Of a DNA stretch of 64,000 bases, positions 26,824 through 38,220 are shown one piece after another. The notes under the pieces are model-generated. The model made no database searches. It saw only the letters and a program-made list of their open reading frames with translations, and was not told the origin of the DNA. Origin of the DNA: a virus (Duplodnaviria; Heunggongvirae; Uroviricota; Caudoviricetes); the IMG/VR virus record IMGVR_UViG_3300045988_154997, positions 32,001 through 96,000 of that record; one strand, 5' to 3'. Position 1 is the stretch's first letter. Each line of letters opens with the position of its first letter. Both the position numbers and the translations under genes were made by a program.

Positions 26824-27516
26824 TTAGACCATCCCTTTCTGGTGTCTTCTTACCTGCGACCAGGCGATAAATCCAGCCACAACAATAGTGGCAATACCGA
26901 AGATGATGCGTACTGTATCCCCACTAGAGATATGACCTTGTGCTTTATCCATAGCAGCGGAAACCTGCGGCATAACATCGGCCAGCTGCGCCAGACCAAT
27001 ACCTGCTGTAACAGTTGCGCCTGCTGTTTCTTTAGTTACAGGAACAGCCTTCACGGTTTTCACCGGCTTAACGACGCCAGCTCGACGCAGACCTTCCTCA
27101 ATAACTTCTGCCGCATACCAGGTGTTCAGCGTTTTTAGCGGACCTCGCCCATTCTCATGGCGAATGATTGCCTCAACCAAAGGTCGAAGAATGTCGTAAT
27201 CATGCAGATCGATGATCATGTCTGCGGTTACACCAACGGCTTTAGACACCTCATTAATGTAGGCGTCAGTGTTGTTTTCATTCGGCGGTGCCCAACGTTC
27301 AATAACTTCACGAATGGTATCGATACTTGAGCCGTCTTTTGCGCGACGTTTGTCGTGGTAGGTAATTAGAGTCACCGCCAGCGCACGAATCCCCCAAACA
27401 GGGTCTTTAAACGTGCAAAAGCGCGGTTCGTCTGGATTCGCAACCAGACCTTGCCACGGTGATCCTTTATCAAGATTACCGGGGTTATTATTACGAATGC
27501 CTCTCGGAGTCTTCAT
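26824..27516 (-). CDS. lysis-cassette protein, endolysin candidate with C-terminal transmembrane helix (function unverified)
   Basis: Conserved-looking GIRNNNPGNL motif near the N-terminus; hydrophobic C-terminus IIFGIATIVVAGFIAW; sits between the holin-like gene and the spanins. Confidence 0.3.
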   Translation of the reverse strand: MKTPRGIRNNNPGNLDKGSPWQGLVANPDEPRFCTFKDPVWGIRALAVTLITYHDKRRAKDGSSIDTIREVIERWAPPNENNTDAYINEVSKAVGVTADMIIDLHDYDILRPLVEAIIRHENGRGPLKTLNTWYAAEVIEEGLRRAGVVKPVKTVKAVPVTKETAGATVTAGIGLAQLADVMPQVSAAMDKAQGHISSGDTVRIIFGIATIVVAGFIAWSQVRRHQKGMV

Positions 27517-27529
27517 CCTTGATCTCCTG

Positions 27530-27865
27530 TTATTGCAGTCCATTTTTTACGCCATACGCGGCTAACCCCAAAAGCAGTGCAGTAATAAAGAACGACGTTA
27601 TTTTAGAAACAATGCCGCCAAAGAACCCACTGGAGATGGAATCTAACCGGTTAAGGAGTTTGTCCAGATTGGAGTGTTGAATACTATGTTGCGCCGGGGT
27701 CATATCACCAAAGTAGGTTTTCAGCTGATCATTGACCTCCTGGCCAATTTCTTCACGTAGCTCTTTACCTAATTTGCCAACAACCTCCCGAGCAACGATC
27801 GCGGCAATACGCTCAACTTGCTCTGTTGTAACGCTCGCCATCTCGTTCGACATGTTTTCCTCCAT
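27530..27865 (-). CDS. membrane protein, holin or antiholin candidate
   Basis: 111 aa with C-terminal hydrophobic helix ITSFFITALLLGLAAYGV; first gene of the lysis cluster. Confidence 0.3.
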   Translation of the reverse strand: MEENMSNEMASVTTEQVERIAAIVAREVVGKLGKELREEIGQEVNDQLKTYFGDMTPAQHSIQHSNLDKLLNRLDSISSGFFGGIVSKITSFFITALLLGLAAYGVKNGLQ

Positions 27866-27934
27866 GAAAAGTCAAATCGGGATGGCGGATTTATATCACA
27901 TTTCACCCTTTTGTTGTAGGTGTGTACTTACCTA

Positions 27935-28168
27935 TCATTCAGCATTGCAACGAACTGATGAGAAAGCACCTACTCCTACCCATCGCCAGTTATAGATGCT
28001 ACCCGCTTTGTATAAGGTATAGTCGTTCACTTTTTTAACAGCATATATGGGTATGACTGTCTCCTGTCCACCAATGATAGCCTCACCGTAACATATAGGT
28101 GTCGGCAATTTCTGGCAGCCAGTAAGAGAGAGAACAACAGCTATTGTTAGAAATAATCTTTTCATCAT
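27935..28168 (-). CDS. small lipoprotein (77 aa); possible superinfection-exclusion protein (Llp/Cor-like by context)
   Basis: Signal peptide MMKRLFLTIAVVLSLTGC with lipobox LTGC; immediately downstream of the tail-fiber locus. Confidence 0.5.
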   Translation of the reverse strand: MMKRLFLTIAVVLSLTGCQKLPTPICYGEAIIGGQETVIPIYAVKKVNDYTLYKAGSIYNWRWVGVGAFSSVRCNAE

Positions 28169-28175
28169 TTACTCA

Positions 28176-28784
28176 TCAGTTATACAGATTTCTATTTATT
28201 ACCGGTACTCTGCCATTTACGCTAAAACTATGGCCGCCATTAAGTTGGTTTACGAATATCGAGCTAACAGTATTTCCATATGCCGCATATCCATAAACCA
28301 TTGTCATGGCCCCGCCCGGTACTGGAACCGCGAACACATTTGCATATGTTGGGATTATCGCTGGCGGGTAATCAAAAACATGCCCTCCAGAACTGTTCCA
28401 CTCCGTATTATTAAGAAAGGTAAATGAAAGTGGGATATTTGCCGTATTATAGATCTCCTCTCCTCGCGCATTGAAAAAACTCATGCCCCAAGTTTCTTTT
28501 TTGGCTATACCTTTCGAAAATACGTATATCGTGGCACTAGAATCGCTACCCTGACCTCCGAAACTGTAAATCACCTGGTTGTTACGCACTATTCTGTTGG
28601 CTATTAATGAAACAGCTTTCGAATAGGCAACAAAAATCATCGGTGAACGATCTGGAGATATTTGGGTGTTAAACTCTGTCCCGCCAGACAAAGAAACAAC
28701 CTGCTTTCTCTGAAAAACGATAGGAGACAAAGAAGGAGACATCCAGACCTTCCCGTCAGATCGATATATCTTGCTTCCGTACAT
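28176..28784 (-). CDS. tail fiber-associated protein (202 aa), possible distal adhesin part
   Basis: Gly/Ser/Asn-rich beta-type composition; start overlaps the upstream ORF stop by 1 nt, in the -1 frame. Confidence 0.4.
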   Translation of the reverse strand: MYGSKIYRSDGKVWMSPSLSPIVFQRKQVVSLSGGTEFNTQISPDRSPMIFVAYSKAVSLIANRIVRNNQVIYSFGGQGSDSSATIYVFSKGIAKKETWGMSFFNARGEEIYNTANIPLSFTFLNNTEWNSSGGHVFDYPPAIIPTYANVFAVPVPGGAMTMVYGYAAYGNTVSSIFVNQLNGGHSFSVNGRVPVINRNLYN

Positions 28785-29038
28785 TATTTTTGAAAAACCA
28801 ATATGTTTAAATTGCCACTAGCTCCAGACCATGAAATGGTATTTCCAGAAACCGTAAGACTTGTGTATTTCCCATTGGTTACGTCCATTATGTAATAGTC
28901 GATTCCCAATCCCGCCTCAACCTCATATGTTCTACTTCCTGAACCAGAGGGAGTAAAATAATCGAGGTAATAAACAGGGGCCAACGCATCGACCATCTCC
29001 TGTCTTGATGGCGACCAAACCTGTGCACCATAGCTCAT
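28784..29038 (-). CDS. tail fiber-associated protein (84 aa); possibly the N-terminal part of a frameshifted or split gene with 28176-28784
   Basis: TAATG junction; composition similar to the downstream ORF. Confidence 0.35.
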   Translation of the reverse strand: MSYGAQVWSPSRQEMVDALAPVYYLDYFTPSGSGSRTYEVEAGLGIDYYIMDVTNGKYTSLTVSGNTISWSGASGNLNILVFQK

Positions 29039-29098
29039 AAATATATCCTTATACTTTTAAGCAGGGGCTGGTTTAGTTCCAGCCCCGATTGAAGTTGT

Positions 29099-32000
29099 TT
29101 ATTCTTTAGGTGAATTTAACTTCGTTTCAAGCTCCTCAACCCTTTTGGTCAATTGCTGAATATGATGAATGAGTGGTACAACCAAACGCTCATACATCAC
29201 TCCTTCAGCGACCATACCATTTGAGGAAATATCTCCTGGAGAATCATTATTTGTTGGTTCACGCCAATGGACATATTGCGGGGCAATCTCACCAACCTCT
29301 TCAGCAATAAGGCCGTAATACCCCCAATCCTTTCGGTCACCTCGACAAATTGAACGATACCAAACAGGTCTTAATGACAAAAGTTCATCAGCATATCGAT
29401 CTTGTAATGTTTCAATATCCTTTTTATAGCGCCTTGAAGATGTTGAACGCCAAACTGTATTGATACCTGGGTTTGGATCAATGTACATATTGGCACCGCT
29501 AGTAGTTGTGCCAATATCCCATATAGCAAACCCTCCACTACCGCCTGATTTGACAACCAGTGTTTCAGCAATAATATCCAGGTTGCCACTATAGCCTGTC
29601 AGTGATGATCTGCTTGCATAGGAACTTAGAAGGTTTGTTACCTCTGTTTTCGTATAAGCATTAAGGTTAGCCGCAGTCAAAGTAATATCGGCAGAGCCAT
29701 CAAACGCCACACCAGCAATTTTCCTTGCTGTCTGCAATTTTGTGGCTGTTGCGGCATTACCAGTAGTATTCTGATTACCGGTTGTATTCACACCAGGGAT
29801 TGAATCCTTAGCGGTATATACCTGCGCCCACGCTGACCATGCCGCATCAGTGGTATCTCTTCTGGAGCGAATGAAAACCGGCGCATGTGCACCGCTCGTA
29901 CCACTCCAGCCAATAAGCAACTCGCCCTCACCAGCAGCACTCGCACCTTTCATGTGCAATACGTTGCCATACGTGGTCGGGTAGCTATTGTTGTACGCCT
30001 CGTACATTTGAATGCCAGCAGTACCTTGAGTAGAACCGCTTAAAGCCGTAACTCGACCACGAGAAACCAATGTATTAATATTGATATCACCTGAACCATC
30101 AAACTTAACACCATTGATGTTTCTCGCTGTTTGCAACTTCGTAGCTGTTGAAGCATTGCCATTCAAGCTACCATTTACGCCACCAGTAACATTTAGTCCA
30201 TTACCAATAGACACAACACCGCTGCTATTATTAATTATAATCGGTCGCAAACTGTTCCATGAACCTAACGTATCTCCTGATGCTGTTAGCATGAAATATG
30301 TGCTGCCGCCGTCATTACGGATAAAGAACCCGTAGTTACCGTAAGCAATGCGGAAACCATTTGCATATTTTGAAACGATCTCACCAGAAGACGTTAACCC
30401 TCCAGATAATGTGCCACCTGAAAGCGGTAATGCTCCTACATCAGAAGCTGTTGGTTTGTTTCTAGTGTTATAAGAACGACGCCAGCCTGGTGCATAATCA
30501 CTTCCATTGTACACATAAATAAATTCCGCATTGTTAACACCACCATGACCCGATGTTGTTGTCGTTGTAACACGAATAGTGTAGTGGCTTGTTGCCTTAT
30601 TACTAAACACCTCAATCACGGAACCAGATAGATCGATCCTACCGCAACCAGTGTCGTCTATATAATTATTGTTGGCGTAAGTCCATGAGCACCGTGCGAT
30701 CCAATGTTTGTTTGTAAATGCCCCCTGATTATTTAGCCAAGTTATAAATTGAGCAGTCGTAAATGCCGTTCCGTTACCACTATTTAACCATCCAGCGGCA
30801 GCGGTTGGCGCGTTTATATCAGCCGGCTGAGGCATAAATCCAGTCGTGTAAACCTGCTCCCAACCACTTTCAAAACCATAGCCATCTCTTGAGGAACGGT
30901 AGAACAGACCACCATTTTTATAGTGAGCTTTAATTTGAAGCGTACGGCAACTACCTACACCGGTATAAAAGTTGGCAAGAATATAACTGTCGCCTGTTCT
31001 AGTTACATTGTAAGCACCAGATTCAGCATTCCACGGCACGCCACCATCAGCATCCGCATATGACCCTGTTGCCCTTCTTGCGAAAGCGGCAACATGCGCA
31101 GCGGTTAAAGTGATATCAGTAGAACCATCAAATGGAACACCGGATATTTTTCTTGCAGTCTGAAGTTTTGTAGCAGTTGCAGCATTACCAGTGGTGTTCT
31201 GATTACCCGTAGTGTTTACACCTGGAAGGTTGATATTTGCAGAACCGTCGAAACCAACTCCACCGATAGATCTTGCCGTCTGCAATTTCGTTGCTGTACT
31301 TGCATTACCATTTAATGTTCCGGTGATCCCACCAGTAACAGACAACGGACCTGAAACTGTTCCTCCGGTTGTTGGCAGTGCTCCAATATCTAACGGCGTC
31401 GGTTTCTGATGTGTGCTATACATCGTATAAACAACACCATCGGTAACGCTGGAAGGCTTACTCGCTGAATATGTTGGCGATGTATAAATAGAAACTGACG
31501 CATTTGCAGTACAATCCCAATGGATATTTACACTCGTCGCATAATTGCCAATTTCAACGTAAATATCATATGTATCGCCGGATGTGTTGATCCAGGCGAA
31601 ATTCGTTAATCCGACAGCTGTACGCTTCCACAAAGCACCTGTAATCCCTTTGGGGTTTCCATTGCCTGCTCGTAGAACCAGTTCTGAAATGCCTGCCTGA
31701 TGTGGGGAGCCGACGTTGTAACCAGCGCCACCAATCAATGCGATGTAAACGATGGAACTCGCTTGTGGCATTGTAACAGTAGCCAGTTTGAACCACCCGG
31801 CCCCGCCAGAGAAAGACATCGTTATTGAATTTAAAGTACCAATATCTTTCGGCGTTAATGTGATATCCGCAGTCAGTGCTTTCCCGTTAATTTTTCGGTT
31901 AGATGGCACCCTGCTGTTCGCATTGTCATTGACTACTTTAACTGCTTTTGGCGTTGCGGCCAGCGATTCACTGGTGCTGTCGACAGCACTGCTAAGTTTC

Positions 32001-33397
32001 ACAACACCTTTAGTTGTAAGGCTTGCGTCTTCCATCGCAACTGCACCGGCAATCTCTTCAGCACGATCAGCAGCAGCTTCCGCACGGGTCGCAGCGGATT
32101 CAGCAGCAGTTTTGCTCTGAGATGCTGCCGTCGCACTGCCTGCCGCCTCTGTTGCTTTCGTGGATGCCGTCGTGGCGCTGCCCTTCGCTGCTGACGCCTG
32201 TCTGGTCGCCTCATCTTTTGAAGCAGACGCAGATGATGCCGATGACGCCGCCGAACTGGCGGACGATGCGGCAGCCGTTTTTGAGGATTCTGCGCTGGTT
32301 TCCGACGCTTTCGCGTTCGTTTCGGATGTCTTCGCTGCGGAAGCAGACCTCGCTGCTGCGCTGGCCTGTTCAGTGGCTTCGCCAGCCTTCGTTGTGGCTG
32401 TTGAAGCAGACGATGCGGCACTTTCTGCCGATTTTCCGGCGGCGGTGGCACTGGCTGAGGCCTGCCCGGCACTTGTTGACGCGGCACTGGCAGACGACGC
32501 AGCCGCTGTTTTTGAGCCTGCCGCAGCCGAGGCGCTCTGTCCCGCTGCCGTTTCAGAAGACCTGGCGTTCGTCTCGGACGTTTTTGCCGCCTTCGCGGAA
32601 TTTCCTGCCGCCGTTGCCGAGGAAGCGGCATTACTGGCGCTCGAGGCTGCGCTCGTTTCTGATGATTTCGCTGCCTCTTTTGAGGCCGCCGCATCCCGGG
32701 CTGAGGTGGCAGCTTCTGACGCCTTCGTGGTCGCGGTGGATGCAGAAGTGGCTGCAGATTTTTGTGACGCTGCAGCATTCGTTTCAGACGTTTTCGCGGC
32801 ACCGGCACTGGTGGCCGCCGCGCTTTTTGAGGACTCTGCAGCGGATGCACTTTGAGACGCTTGAGAGGCTTTTTCTCCAGCGGTATTGGCGCTTTCTGCT
32901 GCTGCGGCAGCACTGGCCGCCGCCTCACGAGCTTTGTCGCCAGCAGCATCAATCGCGTCAGTGTTATTTTTATACCACTCAACGTTTTCGTTGTGCTCGT
33001 TGACGATCTGCATTAGCGGCTTAACGGTCACTTCTGTACCGTCTTCACGCTCGATTGTCACCTCATCCAGAGCAGTCAACCAACTGCGCATGGACTTGGA
33101 ATCAGCCGACATACGCGACATTAGTGCTGTAAAGCGCGCGCTAAACTGTGTTAAGTCGCCTTCATAGGTCGTAATGATTCGGCACGGAACTTCAGACTGA
33201 GTTTCGCCGGTATAAGGTTCTGAGAGAACAATGTTCGTATCACTGGTTACGCGCTTGATCTCATACAGCTTATTGTCGGGGCCAATGACGATCATCCCCG
33301 GCAACACACCATTAGCTGTTACGTTCCAGGCTGTCCCTGCCCCAACCAGAGTATTGCTGCCCTGTGTAAATGTGATAGTACCTTCCCTGTACCACAT
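29099..33397 (-). CDS. tail fiber protein (1432 aa) with Ala/Ser-rich repeat region, fibre repeats and C-terminal intramolecular-chaperone-like domain
   Basis: Repeated GN(A/S)ATATKLQTAR...GVxFDGSxDI fibre motifs; long AS-rich low-complexity segment; C-terminal DIETLQDRYADELLSLRPVWYRSI...GLIAEEV resembles self-cleaving chaperone domains of tail fibres/tailspikes. Confidence 0.8.
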   Translation of the reverse strand: MWYREGTITFTQGSNTLVGAGTAWNVTANGVLPGMIVIGPDNKLYEIKRVTSDTNIVLSEPYTGETQSEVPCRIITTYEGDLTQFSARFTALMSRMSADSKSMRSWLTALDEVTIEREDGTEVTVKPLMQIVNEHNENVEWYKNNTDAIDAAGDKAREAAASAAAAAESANTAGEKASQASQSASAAESSKSAAATSAGAAKTSETNAAASQKSAATSASTATTKASEAATSARDAAASKEAAKSSETSAASSASNAASSATAAGNSAKAAKTSETNARSSETAAGQSASAAAGSKTAAASSASAASTSAGQASASATAAGKSAESAASSASTATTKAGEATEQASAAARSASAAKTSETNAKASETSAESSKTAAASSASSAASSASSASASKDEATRQASAAKGSATTASTKATEAAGSATAASQSKTAAESAATRAEAAADRAEEIAGAVAMEDASLTTKGVVKLSSAVDSTSESLAATPKAVKVVNDNANSRVPSNRKINGKALTADITLTPKDIGTLNSITMSFSGGAGWFKLATVTMPQASSIVYIALIGGAGYNVGSPHQAGISELVLRAGNGNPKGITGALWKRTAVGLTNFAWINTSGDTYDIYVEIGNYATSVNIHWDCTANASVSIYTSPTYSASKPSSVTDGVVYTMYSTHQKPTPLDIGALPTTGGTVSGPLSVTGGITGTLNGNASTATKLQTARSIGGVGFDGSANINLPGVNTTGNQNTTGNAATATKLQTARKISGVPFDGSTDITLTAAHVAAFARRATGSYADADGGVPWNAESGAYNVTRTGDSYILANFYTGVGSCRTLQIKAHYKNGGLFYRSSRDGYGFESGWEQVYTTGFMPQPADINAPTAAAGWLNSGNGTAFTTAQFITWLNNQGAFTNKHWIARCSWTYANNNYIDDTGCGRIDLSGSVIEVFSNKATSHYTIRVTTTTTSGHGGVNNAEFIYVYNGSDYAPGWRRSYNTRNKPTASDVGALPLSGGTLSGGLTSSGEIVSKYANGFRIAYGNYGFFIRNDGGSTYFMLTASGDTLGSWNSLRPIIINNSSGVVSIGNGLNVTGGVNGSLNGNASTATKLQTARNINGVKFDGSGDININTLVSRGRVTALSGSTQGTAGIQMYEAYNNSYPTTYGNVLHMKGASAAGEGELLIGWSGTSGAHAPVFIRSRRDTTDAAWSAWAQVYTAKDSIPGVNTTGNQNTTGNAATATKLQTARKIAGVAFDGSADITLTAANLNAYTKTEVTNLLSSYASRSSLTGYSGNLDIIAETLVVKSGGSGGFAIWDIGTTTSGANMYIDPNPGINTVWRSTSSRRYKKDIETLQDRYADELLSLRPVWYRSICRGDRKDWGYYGLIAEEVGEIAPQYVHWREPTNNDSPGDISSNGMVAEGVMYERLVVPLIHHIQQLTKRVEELETKLNSPKE

Positions 33398-33489: not shown

Positions 33490-36400
33490 TTACAGAAGGC
33501 CAATTCTTACTCGTAGGACGTTGTTATCGTCATAAACGTCAATCCGCTGACCATTTATGACCAGTCGCCCATTACCCCCGCTATTACCGTTGATCTCAAG
33601 CGTTCCATTTTTGCCGAACCGCCATCCAGATCTACCGCTAACAAAATTGGTAGATTGCAGATCGCCTACTTTTGCATTGGTGATTGTGCCATCCTTGATA
33701 TACGCACCATTCATATAGGCGATACTGTTTTCGATAACAAATGGCGTGGTGATCTTCCCGTTAACAGAGTTGACCAAACCAAACCTGTCAGCCTGCACCA
33801 AAAACTGAGAAAGGCCAGTGGTGTCGATACCAAGCGCAATACCAGCAACATACTTCTGCCCTCCGCTCGTTGAAGTTTCCATTTTCAACGTCCACGCGGT
33901 TGACACTTTTTTGTTGGTATCAGCAATAGCTGTTGCCTGCTGTTGAATTGTCGCGGTATTTCCATCCACCTCTGCTTTCAGAGTATCGATTCGCCCACTC
34001 AGAGCATTATCTGCCTGCGTTCTCGCTGTCGTTTCAGTTGTTACCGCCGCGGAAATGTTGGCTGCCGTTTGAGACTCTAAGTTTGTGATTTGAGTCGCCA
34101 ATGCAGCATCTTGCTCTGTACGCGTTTTCGTTTCGGTTGCTACAGCCGCTTTAATATCCTCTTTGTATTGAGAGGTCAGCTTGGTGATCTGAGACGACAA
34201 CGCCGAGTCAGCATCAGTTCGAGCCTGCGTTTCAACTGCAACGGCCGCACTAATATCTTTCGCTGTCTGTGCTTTTAAACTTGAAACCTCTTTTGTTAAA
34301 GCGGTATCACCATCAGCACGAGCCGTTGTTTCTCTGGCAAGAGATGCCTCGAGATCATTAGCTTTTGCTGTAAGAGACGAAATCTGAGTGGACAATGCAC
34401 TATCGGCATCAGTCCTTGCCTTTGTCTCTACAGCAACCGCTGCGGCAATATCAGTTCCGGTTTGTGCTCGCAGGCTGTTAATTTCTCGTGAGAGCGCCTG
34501 GTCAGCACTTGCTCTGGCCTCCTGCTCCTGAGTGATGGCAGCGGATATATCACCGTCAACCTTTGACTGAAGCTGGTTTATTTGTTTGGCTAACGCAGAG
34601 TCCCCGCTTGCTCGGGCCTCCTGCTCACTACGTATTGCAGCAGAAATATCATCATCAACCTTTGCCTGAAGTTGGGTGATCTGGCTTGCCAGAGCCGAAT
34701 CTTCCGTTGCTCGGGCTTCTTGCTCTTCCTTAATAGCTGCGACGATATCGTTGCTTACTTTCGACTCAAGCTGAGTGATCTGTGTCGTCAGAGCTTCATC
34801 GGCAGATGTGCGAGCCTCCTGCTCTGTACTAATCGCCGCGCTGATATCTCCTTCAAACTTAGATTGCAGCTGAGTGACACGCTTTGCCAACGCTTCATCG
34901 CCATCGGCACGAGCGGTGGACTCTTCCAGAATACTGGCCTTAATGTCTTCGCCAATTTCTACGCGAATTTCCTCAACCTTCGTGGCCATTGCAGACATAT
35001 CATCAGCAAAGGTTTTCTGTGTTGTTGCGATCTTCGCGTTATTGACCATCTGCTTGTGCTGGTCTTCATCTTGACGAAGAGCCAGGTCAATATTTGTTTT
35101 GGCTAACGCCTCAATGTTCGTAGTCAGTTCTGCACTGGCACGATCGACCTCTGCAACCGTCTTTTTCATTTCTTCAACGGCAGCGGAGCTTTCCTCTACC
35201 GTTGACTGCAACACTTCCAGTTGTTTAGCGTTTGCAGCATCGCCTTCAACACGAGCCTCGCTTTCCTTAGCAATAAGAGCCGCCGCTTCATCTCTTGCAG
35301 CCTTTATTGCCTCGACTGTATTAGCGAGAGCTTTATCGTGTTCAGATACGGTGTTTTCGATTTCAACAATTGCAGCATCAGTAGCATCAATTTTTTCAAA
35401 CGCTTCATTGACCTTGTCGATCGTTGCCGAAACCTCACCTTTAAGCTCGGTTTGTGCGTTCTCCAAAGCATCGCTACGCTCGTTGAATTTTATTTCAAAA
35501 CCCGCGAGGTTATCGCTGAACTGCTTATCTAATTCAGCTATATCTTCCTTAACGTCGTTTACCGACCCCTCCAAAGATTCGACGCTCTGGTTGATATGCT
35601 CATTTAACTCGTCAACTGCTTCTTGAGAGGCTTTGCTGTTGATGTCCTCAAGCAGAGCCTGACCAAGCTCGGAAGATGTAATTTTGCCAGCCAGGAACGA
35701 CAGTACATCGCGAGTTGTCGCCTCTGTACCCAAGTTTGAGTTCGGAGGGCTTAACATACCTCGCTTGTTCGATGCTCGAACCCAGTAATACCACGTTTCG
35801 CTATCCCCAAGACCAGCATGTGTAAAGGTGGTGCTTGCAGACTCTGCGATCAGTTTCGCCGTATCCAGATTGTTGGTCTGGGATGCGTAAACATTAATGT
35901 GATCAAGGTCTACCGAATCTGGATTAACCCAATTCAGTATCACATTACGATAGTCTCCAACGGCCGTTAATGACGTTGGTGCATCCGGCGGTGTCATTGT
36001 GCCCAGCACCTGATAAACGGTACTGATAATTTCTGTTTTTTTACCGTTGAATGAAACCGCATACAGTTGGAAGTCGTAGCGTCCATTCTCCGCGACATTA
36101 ACGATTTCGTATTGCTCTTCGGTTACACGCGCCGATTGCCAGTTCGATACATTGTTTTCATCAGAACGTCGCCAACTGATCCAATACTCTGGAGATTTCC
36201 CTTCCCATGTTGCAGTCAGTTTTACTGACAGGTTGCCCGGGCTTGAGAGGTAAGTCCCTTCAGTGATTTGCAAATTAGACGGCTTGGAGTAAGTCGGGTC
36301 CAATACCGTCGTATTCTGCGGGATAAGCGTTGCACCATTGTCGATCGCCTCATATTTAGACGGATTGTTTTCAACAGCGGTGATGTCAAAGCTACCCGAC

Positions 36401-38220
36401 GTTTCCCCCTGAGCGATGTTAACGATGCGAACGCGCATAGGTTCGAGATCTGGTTCTGTAATTGTCCAGACACCGTTCAAAACAGGCGTTTCCGCTGACG
36501 ACAGAGCTTTTGAAAACGTAACCTTTGTTATGTTTTCGCCAGTTTCAAGAACATCGCGCTCAACGATTTTGCCTTCCTGATTCAATATCCGAATAAAGCT
36601 GCCGCTTTTAGCTAACGACACAGGCGCATCGAGAGTGATGCTGTTTTTGGTAAACTCCACAATTCGACCGGAGTTACGTTTACCTGCACGATATTTGTTC
36701 TGAATCAGAACGGTTTCACCGGGCATCAGAAATGAGGCGTCTAAGCCGGCAGTAAATGTAATTACATCCGACTCCATTCTGGCGGTATACAAAAGCCACA
36801 AACCAACTCGGTGAGCCTGGCCTCGGCTTGTACATCCAAATGCTACGACTTCTGTTTTACGCTCACCATAACGGCGCATTGCGTCCTGATCTTCAACGTA
36901 CTCGATATTTTGCTTATAACCGTCCTCCTTGTTGTTGTAGGTTACGAGCGCAACGGATGGGCGATCTTTACGCGCAGAACCTTTATAGGTAAACAGTCCA
37001 TCTTTGACGTTGGAGTTGGTAAACATCATTACCGGATCTGATGGGCTATCCTGCATGATGTTAACCATGCCACCAGCCCAAAACACCATGCCGCGGAATG
37101 CACCGGCAATATCCTGAATTAATCGGTATGCGTCTTGTCGACTGGTGATCTGCGTATTGATTGCAAAGCGTTTCTCTTTACCCCCAAAGCCATCATCGAC
37201 CTCTTCGTCACAATATCGACCAATCTGGTAGAGCTGGCCGAGGTCAATCATGGATTCCGACACAAATTGCCCAAGACCATACCGAGTATTGGTAAGCAAA
37301 TCGTAGAGAATCCACGCAGGGTTTGAAGAAGACAACAGCTTAAAAGTACCGTCCCATACGCCGACATAAGTATTGGTGTATTCGTTGTAGTTTGACGGTA
37401 CTCGGATTTTGATACCGCGCACCAAATACGAACGGGAAGGCATTGTGCTACCAAACTGCTCTGAATTGACCTTCAAGCCAACAAGAGCAGAGTTAGGGTA
37501 GTTCATTGGCGTGTCGACAATCTCACCGATGGAATCAACCCATGTGTCGTTGTAGAGGTACTGGCTACTGTTATCATCTGTAAGACGAATCACCCTAACC
37601 TTGTATGCACGACCAGGCTTAGGTAGTTTCAGCTCATAGCTACGGTAATACACGCCTGTTTTCTTTGCCGTTAGCGTGATATCAACGCTTTTCTCACCTT
37701 CTGCCACCACATCAGAAAATGTTGCGTCTCCGTTGGCGATCTGGAATTTGTACTTCACCGTAGTGCCATTTGTATCGCCAGAGCTTTTATCAACGCTACG
37801 TAAAGAGGGGAATTTCATGATGACACGAACGCGATCAGCTTCATCGTTATCGATTGAAACCGTAACGTCGTGTGTTTTTTTAAGCTGAATATTTACGGAC
37901 TTAGGCGTTTCAACAAAATCAAAACCAGCCATTGGCGTCTGGTCTTGTGAGCCGTCACGAAAATCCCATGTAATACCGCTGAAGTTGGAAGAGCCATCTT
38001 CATTCAAGATCGGTAAATCGTCGATGAAGATCGACTTTGCGCCATTTACCAGGCCACCGATAACCCCCTCGCCAAGAAGGTCGAGGATGGCTGCCATAGC
38101 ACGAGAATTGACAGTATCATCAGCTTCAACCGGGGTACGGCTGGAGCTTTTACTTTTCTTGCCACCAGCACCGGCAATAAGAAGCGGTAATTTTTTCTTC
38201 TTGAACTGTTCCATGTCCAA
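33490..38220 (-). CDS. central tail fibre / host specificity protein (lambda J-like) with extended coiled-coil repeat region
   Basis: 1576 aa; N-terminal two-thirds read as J-like with fibronectin-III-type segments; about 11 tandem 28-aa repeats (EQEARASGDSALAKQINQLQSKVDGDISAAI-like); sits downstream of gpI/K/L/M homologues. Confidence 0.8.
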   Translation of the reverse strand: MDMEQFKKKKLPLLIAGAGGKKSKSSSRTPVEADDTVNSRAMAAILDLLGEGVIGGLVNGAKSIFIDDLPILNEDGSSNFSGITWDFRDGSQDQTPMAGFDFVETPKSVNIQLKKTHDVTVSIDNDEADRVRVIMKFPSLRSVDKSSGDTNGTTVKYKFQIANGDATFSDVVAEGEKSVDITLTAKKTGVYYRSYELKLPKPGRAYKVRVIRLTDDNSSQYLYNDTWVDSIGEIVDTPMNYPNSALVGLKVNSEQFGSTMPSRSYLVRGIKIRVPSNYNEYTNTYVGVWDGTFKLLSSSNPAWILYDLLTNTRYGLGQFVSESMIDLGQLYQIGRYCDEEVDDGFGGKEKRFAINTQITSRQDAYRLIQDIAGAFRGMVFWAGGMVNIMQDSPSDPVMMFTNSNVKDGLFTYKGSARKDRPSVALVTYNNKEDGYKQNIEYVEDQDAMRRYGERKTEVVAFGCTSRGQAHRVGLWLLYTARMESDVITFTAGLDASFLMPGETVLIQNKYRAGKRNSGRIVEFTKNSITLDAPVSLAKSGSFIRILNQEGKIVERDVLETGENITKVTFSKALSSAETPVLNGVWTITEPDLEPMRVRIVNIAQGETSGSFDITAVENNPSKYEAIDNGATLIPQNTTVLDPTYSKPSNLQITEGTYLSSPGNLSVKLTATWEGKSPEYWISWRRSDENNVSNWQSARVTEEQYEIVNVAENGRYDFQLYAVSFNGKKTEIISTVYQVLGTMTPPDAPTSLTAVGDYRNVILNWVNPDSVDLDHINVYASQTNNLDTAKLIAESASTTFTHAGLGDSETWYYWVRASNKRGMLSPPNSNLGTEATTRDVLSFLAGKITSSELGQALLEDINSKASQEAVDELNEHINQSVESLEGSVNDVKEDIAELDKQFSDNLAGFEIKFNERSDALENAQTELKGEVSATIDKVNEAFEKIDATDAAIVEIENTVSEHDKALANTVEAIKAARDEAAALIAKESEARVEGDAANAKQLEVLQSTVEESSAAVEEMKKTVAEVDRASAELTTNIEALAKTNIDLALRQDEDQHKQMVNNAKIATTQKTFADDMSAMATKVEEIRVEIGEDIKASILEESTARADGDEALAKRVTQLQSKFEGDISAAISTEQEARTSADEALTTQITQLESKVSNDIVAAIKEEQEARATEDSALASQITQLQAKVDDDISAAIRSEQEARASGDSALAKQINQLQSKVDGDISAAITQEQEARASADQALSREINSLRAQTGTDIAAAVAVETKARTDADSALSTQISSLTAKANDLEASLARETTARADGDTALTKEVSSLKAQTAKDISAAVAVETQARTDADSALSSQITKLTSQYKEDIKAAVATETKTRTEQDAALATQITNLESQTAANISAAVTTETTARTQADNALSGRIDTLKAEVDGNTATIQQQATAIADTNKKVSTAWTLKMETSTSGGQKYVAGIALGIDTTGLSQFLVQADRFGLVNSVNGKITTPFVIENSIAYMNGAYIKDGTITNAKVGDLQSTNFVSGRSGWRFGKNGTLEINGNSGGNGRLVINGQRIDVYDDNNVLRVRIGLL
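33990..35000 (-). repeat. tandem roughly 84-bp coding repeats inside the J-like gene (boundaries approximate)
   Basis: Protein-level periodicity of about 28 aa; generates shadow ORFs on the plus strand. Confidence 0.55.

Follow-up and report, generated by a model that had tools for sequence, protein, structure and literature searches.

A probable host-recognition and superinfection-exclusion cassette of small, large and Cor genes in an SSU5-like phage-plasmid of Escherichia coli

We analyzed a stretch of viral DNA of 64,000 nucleotides (nt), hereafter the window, which covers positions 32,001 to 96,000 of the IMG/VR record IMGVR_UViG_3300045988_154997 (Caudoviricetes), and specifically examined three small genes that lie between its tail fibre genes and its lysis genes. 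The window comes from an SSU5-like E. coli phage-plasmid: over the 1.4 kb that surround the three genes, it matches plasmid pYLPM7a (NZ_CP073997) at 100% identity and dozens more plasmids of ~110 kb, nearly all of them non-mobilisable, at 98-100%. All three genes are on the minus strand and start with ATG, namely a small gene of 84 amino acids (aa) (28784-29038), a large gene of 202 aa (28176-28784) and a 77-aa lipoprotein gene, cor (27935-28168). Read along the minus strand, the order is J, a 1432-aa side fibre, the 84-, 202- and 77-aa genes, the holin, the endolysin and the spanins. The list of open reading frames (ORFs) and the sequence bear out what the initial annotation had described here, three small ORFs beside a tail fibre gene with a one-nt overlap between the first two. 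The small and the large ORF share base 28784, so that the TAA stop of one and the ATG start of the other form TAATG and the 202-aa ORF runs in the -1 frame. The pair is rich in Gly, Ser and Asn, as had also been noted, these residues together making up 28.6% of the small and 30.2% of the large protein. An AAGGA ribosome-binding site is located 8 nt 5' of the small-gene ATG, and cor starts 7 nt past the stop of the 202-aa gene.

Each of the three products has a strong PHROG match: the 84-aa protein to phrog_557 (E 1.3e-24), the 202-aa protein to phrog_425 (E 5.5e-49, residues 1-201) and the 77-aa protein to phrog_1119, 'Cor superinfection exclusion protein' (E 2.3e-30, residues 2-76). The ORFs are also conserved in 22 SSU5-like IMG/VR loci and in more than 120 plasmids. 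Because of these matches and this conservation, we conclude at the level of sequence that the three ORFs are genuine genes and not chance ORFs. No Pfam family matched the 84-, 202- or 77-aa protein above the cut-off. Cor directly follows the small/large pair in all 21 of the SSU5-like IMG/VR loci that are not cut off there, and a census of plasmids gave ~73 with the window-type large protein, ~53 with the SSU5 type and ~115 with the type of the SSU5-like phage Cyrano (~26% identity). The related IMG/VR loci were gathered by a search with a narrowed alignment (A4); in the word-indexed protein search, single-sequence queries returned only close SSU5-like relatives, and an alignment of distant homologues was needed to reach more.

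We interpret the three genes as a host-recognition and exclusion unit of small, large and Cor proteins, a type of unit familiar mainly from FhuA-dependent phages, and give this interpretation a probability of about 0.7. The cassette itself is already known and was reportedly recorded in the Rtp, T1 and N15 genome papers; the cor copy of Salmonella phage SSU5 is annotated, and nothing in the locus would surprise a phage specialist. A review names it the 'cor cassette' and ties it to the use of FhuA (PMC13164509). What is new here is the apparent homology of phrog_425 to a solved LptD-binding receptor-binding protein (RBP), the paralogy of the small protein with the N-terminal domain of the large one, the standing of the SSU5-like E. 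coli allele as a distinct clade, and a set of annotation corrections.

By its sequence, the 77-aa protein is a member of the Cor family of superinfection-exclusion lipoproteins, and it is a probable outer-membrane lipoprotein and exclusion factor. Its N-terminus, MMKRLFLTIAVVLSLTGC, consists of a basic n-region, a hydrophobic core and the lipobox LTGC that had been recognized at the outset, with the cysteine at position 18 and Gln at +2. A lipobox cysteine followed by a residue other than Asp is what sorting to the outer membrane calls for. The Pfam lipid-attachment site LPAM_1 is found only weakly, below the cut-off. In tblastn comparisons the protein is 59% identical to SSU5_025 (annotated as Cor-like), 58% to a Cor-like protein of Stx2 phage 86 and 47% to the Cor of HK022 and the mEp phages. 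Cys26, Cys74 and YKAGSIYNWRWV are aligned in each of the eight Cor sequences used for comparison, the window having YKAG..NWRWV where the family core is YRAG..NWRWV, and the two cysteines form a conserved pair that would fit the intramolecular disulphide of the Cor family. The mature protein is 45-47% identical to the Cor proteins of HK022, N15 and phi80, and T1 Cor is 31-36% identical to those three. Since the window protein is closer to them than T1 Cor is, its sequence falls within the spread of Cor proteins from FhuA-dependent phages.

The initial annotation had described the lipoprotein as 'Llp/Cor-type'. The Cor half of that description is now grounded in sequence by the phrog_1119 match and the identities above; the Llp half holds as an analogy of function and, according to published work, of structure, and not as sequence kinship, because a phmmer search of the 77-aa protein against all PDB chains, with T5 Llp (8A60) among them and E values up to 10 admitted, returned only an unrelated hydrogenase at E 1.6. 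Published work puts Cor and Llp at ~20% identity, expects Cor to work like Llp and reports that Cor mediates exclusion in T1 and phi80 (PMC9586334). Since cor lies on the same strand as its neighbours, inside the late tail-lysis block, it may act mainly in lytic growth, sparing progeny from loss on debris as has been proposed for Llp, and to a lesser degree as a moron expressed from the prophage.

Outside the SSU5 group, the nearest Cor is the one of Stx2 phage 86, a short-tailed phage (L006 3428-4213; L089-L091). Its cor gene follows a long-tail-fibre gene and a 181-aa ORF and lies ~3.5 kb upstream of that phage's small and large genes; since it sits away from its pair, Cor can travel apart from the pair. 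In the Warwickvirus SECphi27, gp74 (L003 4451-4720; L036, L037) encodes an 89-aa lipoprotein before the pair, with a weak match to the Cor profile (E ~1e-4) and with two cysteines and a C-terminal RW...F..LRC motif in common with Cor. From these features, the Warwickvirus lipoprotein is probably a diverged Cor-like exclusion protein.

Turning to the pair, we regard the 202-aa all-beta protein as the probable RBP that caps the central fibre J, and the 84-aa protein as a putative beta-rich tail-tip accessory protein, paralogous to the N-terminal domain of its larger partner. The large protein has the motifs of phrog_425 (alignments A1 and A2): M-x-YG at the N-terminus, YxF...YG-x-x-x-Y/W-N..G...PL in the centre and I-N/D-x-x-x-Y-D at the C-terminus. 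In hhalign the small family aligns over its full length with residues 1-89 of the large family (probability 94%, E 1e-7), and residues 98-124 of the large protein contain a third copy of the opening motif Y/W-G-x-x-I/W...G...P. The AlphaFold2 model of the 84-aa protein (predicted local distance difference test score, pLDDT, 76.8) is a beta-sandwich with residues 1-19 disordered.

A profile alignment to the Rtp44/Oekolampad family supports the assignment. For Rtp44/Oekolampad, the RBP next to gpJ and the lipoprotein Rtp45 as its periplasmic exclusion factor have been experimentally solved (bioRxiv 10.1101/2025.07.07.663478). The large family (34 sequences) aligned with Rtp44/Oekolampad (7 sequences) by hhalign with a probability of 88% and an E value of 2.8e-6 over 120 columns; as controls, a reversed profile and 20 column-shuffled profiles all gave E 0.12 or worse. 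The alignment covers only the core of the large protein, residues 49-178. Because of it, we take the large protein to be a distant homologue of a proven RBP family that has the same genetic partner, a small lipoprotein. This adds evidence that the RBP families of the J tip, called 'unrelated' in a recent preprint, share ancestry with a solved RBP. The two systems also differ: the RBP of the Rtp44/Oekolampad (Bas18) system (PDB 9rpt) is a single chain of ~310 aa and not an 84+202 pair, its lipoprotein Rtp45 is encoded upstream and acts by physical displacement of a loop and not by allostery, and its receptor is LptD. Published AlphaFold-Multimer models place the large protein, described as 'hand-like', at the tip of J and against FhuA or BamA (PMC12309495).

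Two opposed readings of the pair are in print, as RBP and as exclusion factor, and our results favour the RBP. Under the second, the pair would not be part of the virion and would form, together with Cor, a larger superinfection-exclusion or membrane 'moron' cassette, which we consider improbable. PHROG places phrog_425 in the category 'moron, auxiliary metabolic gene and host takeover' and labels the two families 'outer membrane protein' (phrog_557) and 'membrane associated protein' (phrog_425). We found no signal peptide, lipobox or hydrophobic or transmembrane segment in either pair protein by scans in which Cor and the holin scored as expected, and the maximum KD15 hydropathy of the 84-aa protein is 0.95; neither protein would thus reach the envelope by the usual routes, and published membrane-affinity estimates for the pair proteins are low (PMC12309495). 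Both labels are mislabels, and correcting such database labels is one use of this analysis. The tight linkage of the pair with cor, from which the KanT1 authors assume an exclusion-related role (PMC13164509), is looser elsewhere: cor is on the strand opposite to the pair in T1, ES18 and damhaus and so forms a separate transcription unit there, and Stx-type and JenP/Cyrano-type loci have the pair without an adjacent Cor. The pair adjoins lom in the Stx phages and sits among early and accessory genes in Cyrano, which an exclusion function would accommodate; homology of the large protein to a solved RBP speaks for the virion.

Several points weigh against a recognition and exclusion unit, the assumption of the KanT1 authors among them. 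The fold model of the 202-aa protein is of moderate confidence (pLDDT 74), its Foldseek match to 9rpt_C is not significant (E 0.06, template-modelling score 0.30), and a profile of the large family (33 sequences) found no match among PDB sequences. What is in print on a virion or receptor role of phrog_425 and phrog_557 consists of in silico work and one band on sodium dodecyl sulfate-polyacrylamide gel electrophoresis, the latter for an unrelated podovirus. In Cyrano (OV696614, 81.9-82.8 kb; L013 4001-4899; L012), a divergent pair (~35% identity for the small and ~30% for the large protein) has no cor nearby and lies far from the tail genes, among a methylase, RNase H, TciA/B-like and Ead/Ea22 genes. 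A promoter scan of 27400-29400 gave three promoter-like sites against 4.7 expected by chance, and none stands out for cor. Given the arrangement in Stx2 phage 86, Cor in the window could also be a free-standing defence moron.

We then considered which fibre the pair would serve. The J-like central tail fibre (33490-38220, minus strand) is 1576 aa long, and blastp aligned its residues 1373-1576 with the extreme C-terminus of phi80 gp21 at 39% identity (E 7e-34). Overlapping stretches align with the C-termini of HK022 J, T1 gp33, N15 gp21 and ES18 gp29, with identities of 31-39% across all five; the comparison set consisted of these five phages. The window J ends in ...NVLRVRIGLL, against ...NVLRVQVGRLTGVF in the comparison. 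Judged by these alignments, the C-terminus of the window J is of the T1/phi80 type, and its last ~200 residues (33493-34104, minus strand) are the proposed docking site of the pair. A J of this class is reported to have no receptor-binding domain of its own, with the RBP encoded separately (PMC8594841; PMC12309495; bioRxiv 10.64898/2026.04.02.716166), and loci downstream of gpJ track receptor specificity (PMC8594841; bioRxiv 10.64898/2026.04.02.716166). Between the window and SSU5, the holin and the endolysin are 95% and 94% identical, against 65% for the J C-terminus, 69% for the small protein, 75% for the large protein and 57% for Cor. The recognition module, consisting of the J C-terminus, the small and large proteins and Cor, diverges jointly and faster than its neighbour genes. 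Because the J C-terminus is of the T1/phi80 type, and with support from this co-divergence, the pair most likely caps J and not the adjacent side fibre.

The initial annotation had proposed the pair, noted as lying just downstream of the tail fibre gene, as the likely distal adhesin. A role as tail-tip adhesin stands in spirit, and an assignment to the side fibre is probably wrong. That fibre (1432 aa, 29099-33397, minus strand) does lie immediately 5' of the pair, the slot holds fibre chaperones or adhesins in many phages, and SSU5_022 lies between the SSU5 fibre and its pair, so that the pair might be taken for its distal adhesin or for a Tfa-like assembly chaperone. We consider this unlikely. 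The side fibre, which has a Pfam Gp34_trimer match (1.8e-29) and matches to many PHROG tail-fibre families, carries its own C-terminal intramolecular chaperone, Peptidase_S74 (5.5e-6). The pair comes directly after J in T1 (gp32, gp31), N15 (gp22, gp23), phi80 (gp22, gp23), HK022 (gp25, gp26), ES18 (gp30, gp31) and damhaus, where the side-fibre gene follows cor or lies elsewhere; Cyrano has J, the side fibre and the holin in the same arrangement with no cassette in between; and it is the J C-terminus that co-varies with the pair. In SSU5 the trio sits after J plus the side fibre, and the pair is also near tail genes in SECphi27 and the Stx phages. Since the side fibre has its own S74 chaperone and does not adjoin the pair in most classical relatives, we concluded that the position 'downstream of the tail fibre gene' is incidental, a side-fibre gene lying between J and the cassette in this lineage. 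The side fibre also contains a long Ala/Ser/Thr-rich repeat region, roughly residues 150-440, with units like AAKTSETNA.

Between the side-fibre stop and the small-gene start there is a GC-rich hairpin with an 8-bp stem, GGGGCUGG/CCAGCCCC (29064-29086, minus strand). The RNA of 29030-29110 on this strand folds at -25.7 kcal/mol (z = -4.87), and 0 of 200 shuffled sequences fold as well. No U-run follows the stem and the terminator scan made no call there; the hairpin may be a leaky terminator or attenuator, or an RNA stabiliser. At the corresponding J/gp32 junction of T1, a terminator is annotated.

The one-base overlap of the small and large ORFs had been left with three options, namely two coupled genes, one frameshifted gene or a sequencing error. 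Their sequence and conservation identify them as two translationally coupled genes. The same pair with the same split is found in T1, N15, phi80, HK022, ES18, SSU5, damhaus, SECphi27 and VT2-Sakai; in all 79 related IMG/VR loci the small ORF is directly 5' of the large ORF and never fused to it; and the small and large genes are coupled or abut in the ten phages whose junction was read, seven of which (the window, SSU5, HK022, ES18, T1, N15 and phi80) have TAATG. A single gene, joined by programmed -1 frameshifting or broken by a sequencing or assembly error, is very improbable: the overlap does set the second ORF in the -1 frame, the junction run CAAAAATAA would in principle let a tRNA-Lys in the P-site slip onto the frame of the large ORF, and one 147-aa database protein (P0017) joins parts of both ORFs, but dozens of independently assembled plasmids and phages show an identical split, as do the 79 loci and every classical phage checked, PHROG assigns the two to different families, the A-run is not conserved (SSU5 CAGAAATAA, HK022 GCATAA, T1 GATTAA), and the large ORF opens with the conserved M-x-YG motif of its family exactly at its own ATG. 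In line with this, no slippery site was conserved across the junctions compared, of the kind used in the programmed -1 frameshift of lambda G/GT. P0017, the sole apparent fusion, contains out-of-frame segments and was set aside as a poor assembly. A further protein (P0022, 1611 aa), with ten matched stretches, was a low-complexity Ala/Thr repeat and was discarded as an artefact of composition. In the window and in SSU5 no separate Shine-Dalgarno sequence precedes the large gene, whereas the T1/HK022 clade has GGAG. Termination followed by re-initiation is probably what the large gene requires here for its expression.

On this basis the following mechanism can be proposed. Translation of the small and large genes, both in the late tail operon, would be coupled, with the large gene re-initiating at TAATG. 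We infer the presence of both products in the virion, their docking on J and their stoichiometry there: as soluble beta-proteins they would assemble on the distal end of the trimeric J, whose own C-terminus lacks a domain for receptor binding. As the RBP proper, the 202-aa protein would make contact with a beta-barrel protein of the outer membrane and set off ejection of the DNA, and the 84-aa protein would be an immunoglobulin-like accessory or adaptor. Cor would undergo export and lipidation at Cys18 and end up in the inner leaflet of the outer membrane. There, if it works like T5 Llp, it might attach to the periplasmic face of the receptor that the RBP uses and leave the surface loops of that receptor unable to bind the RBP. 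Infected or lysogenic cells would thereby be protected, and progeny virions would not be lost on cell debris.

The cassette was then compared with known systems. T1, N15, phi80, HK022 and ES18 have the same three families in the same order (T1 gp32, gp31, cor; N15 gp22-24; phi80 gp22, gp23, cor; HK022 gp25-27; ES18 gp30-32), and share with the window the one-base overlap of small and large, a Cor with the same two conserved cysteines and a homologous J C-terminus. Unlike these phages, the window has its 4.3-kb side-fibre gene between J and the cassette. Its gap from large to cor is 7 nt on the same strand, against ~110 nt in the lambdoid phages and a cor on the opposite strand in T1 and ES18, and its large protein of 202 aa is shorter than theirs (212-229 aa) and just 22-26% identical to them. 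SSU5 has an orthologous cassette, SSU5_023/024/025, in the same slot between tail fibre genes and holin and with the same TAATG; it differs in an extra adhesin or Tfa gene upstream, and in the low identity of the cassette (69/75/57%) against 94-95% for the neighbouring lysis genes. T5 pb5/Llp follows the same logic: pb5, the RBP, sits at the central-fibre tip, and Llp, a small lipoprotein encoded next to it, acts in the periplasm to block their common TonB-dependent receptor, FhuA (PMC9586334). In the Stx phages 933W, VT2-Sakai and phi24B, L0126/L0127 downstream of the tail spike belong to the same small and large families, the large protein having ~205 aa and 24% identity by tblastn or 29% in global alignment. 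These phages differ in being podoviruses with the receptor BamA, in having lom and not cor after the pair, and in a junction without overlap.

With regard to the receptor, we lean slightly towards FhuA, a call that follows from membership in the Cor family. The receptor could not be read from the clade of the RBP, and this approach was dropped, as the window-type allele lies at about the same distance from every clade whose receptor is known: it forms a separate clade, at 29-31% identity to the alleles of Warwickviruses, Stx phages and Cyrano, and at 22-26% to those of the T1/HK022 type associated with FhuA. This distinctness makes the call less secure, as does the occurrence of Cor apart from such a pair in Stx2 phage 86, and so do several reports on relatives: Warwickviruses are not FhuA-dependent (PMC10373560), their receptor being reported as unknown, Stx phages use BamA (PMC12309495), and SSU5 is reported to use the core of the lipopolysaccharide (PMC4138488); we also found no published mention of FhuA dependence of SSU5. 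It is possible that the SSU5-type allele and its Cor recognise a different receptor from FhuA. E. coli, Salmonella, Enterobacter and Citrobacter commonly harbour SSU5-like phage-plasmids, which can carry resistance genes. For these elements the cassette predicts an outer-membrane barrel as target, most likely FhuA, and also predicts resistance of the carrier cells to FhuA-dependent phages such as T1, phi80 and T5.

A wider relationship among the RBPs can be put forward tentatively, and we hold it to be rather doubtful. All small RBPs beside gpJ, i.e., the FhuA types of T1/HK022, the BamA type of the Stx phages, the SSU5 type and the LptD type of Rtp44/Oekolampad, might form one superfamily with three beta-domains that each open with G-I/L-x-I/V...G/D, and the 84+202 pair might then be a 1+2 split of an RBP of ~310 aa that forms a pseudo-threefold cap for the trimeric J tip. 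Rtp44 (L093 6753-7688) and its relatives (L094-L099) contain the motif G-I/L-x-I/V plus a turn three times, at about residues 3, 114 and 208, a spacing that matches the small N-terminus, the large N-terminus and the large middle of the split pair. A collinear global alignment scored 27.5, against 5.7 +/- 4.0 for shuffled sequences and 14.7 for swapped domain order, and was also above the reversed control; this global score is no higher than the local score of the large core alone. In a test of the split itself, neither the small protein nor the large N-domain alone matched the Rtp44 family significantly (E 0.12-0.18), so that motif spacing is what speaks for the split-gene idea.

Some database entries for this region should also be corrected. 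In the RefSeq/PGAP annotation of plasmids that do not differ from the window across the 1.4 kb compared (e.g., NZ_CP073997; L001 12054-12943) the cor gene is unannotated, and the 202-aa gene is started at Met15 (188 aa), which hides the TAATG coupling. Since homologues of the large protein align from residue 1, the longer, overlapping start is supported; the deposited start of SSU5_024 is likewise the shorter one. In pYLPM7a (L001 13300-17690) just the 978-aa C-terminal part of the side fibre is annotated, and ~1.4 kb before J is left without a gene. Downstream of the cassette, the endolysin (239 aa, 26824-27543, minus strand) matches phrog_873 (E 9e-89) and has no Pfam lysozyme match above the cut-off. 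It ends in a hydrophobic stretch, IIFGIATIVVAGFIAWSQV, that resembles a C-terminal membrane anchor, an unusual feature for an endolysin, and PGAP names the protein 'membrane protein'.

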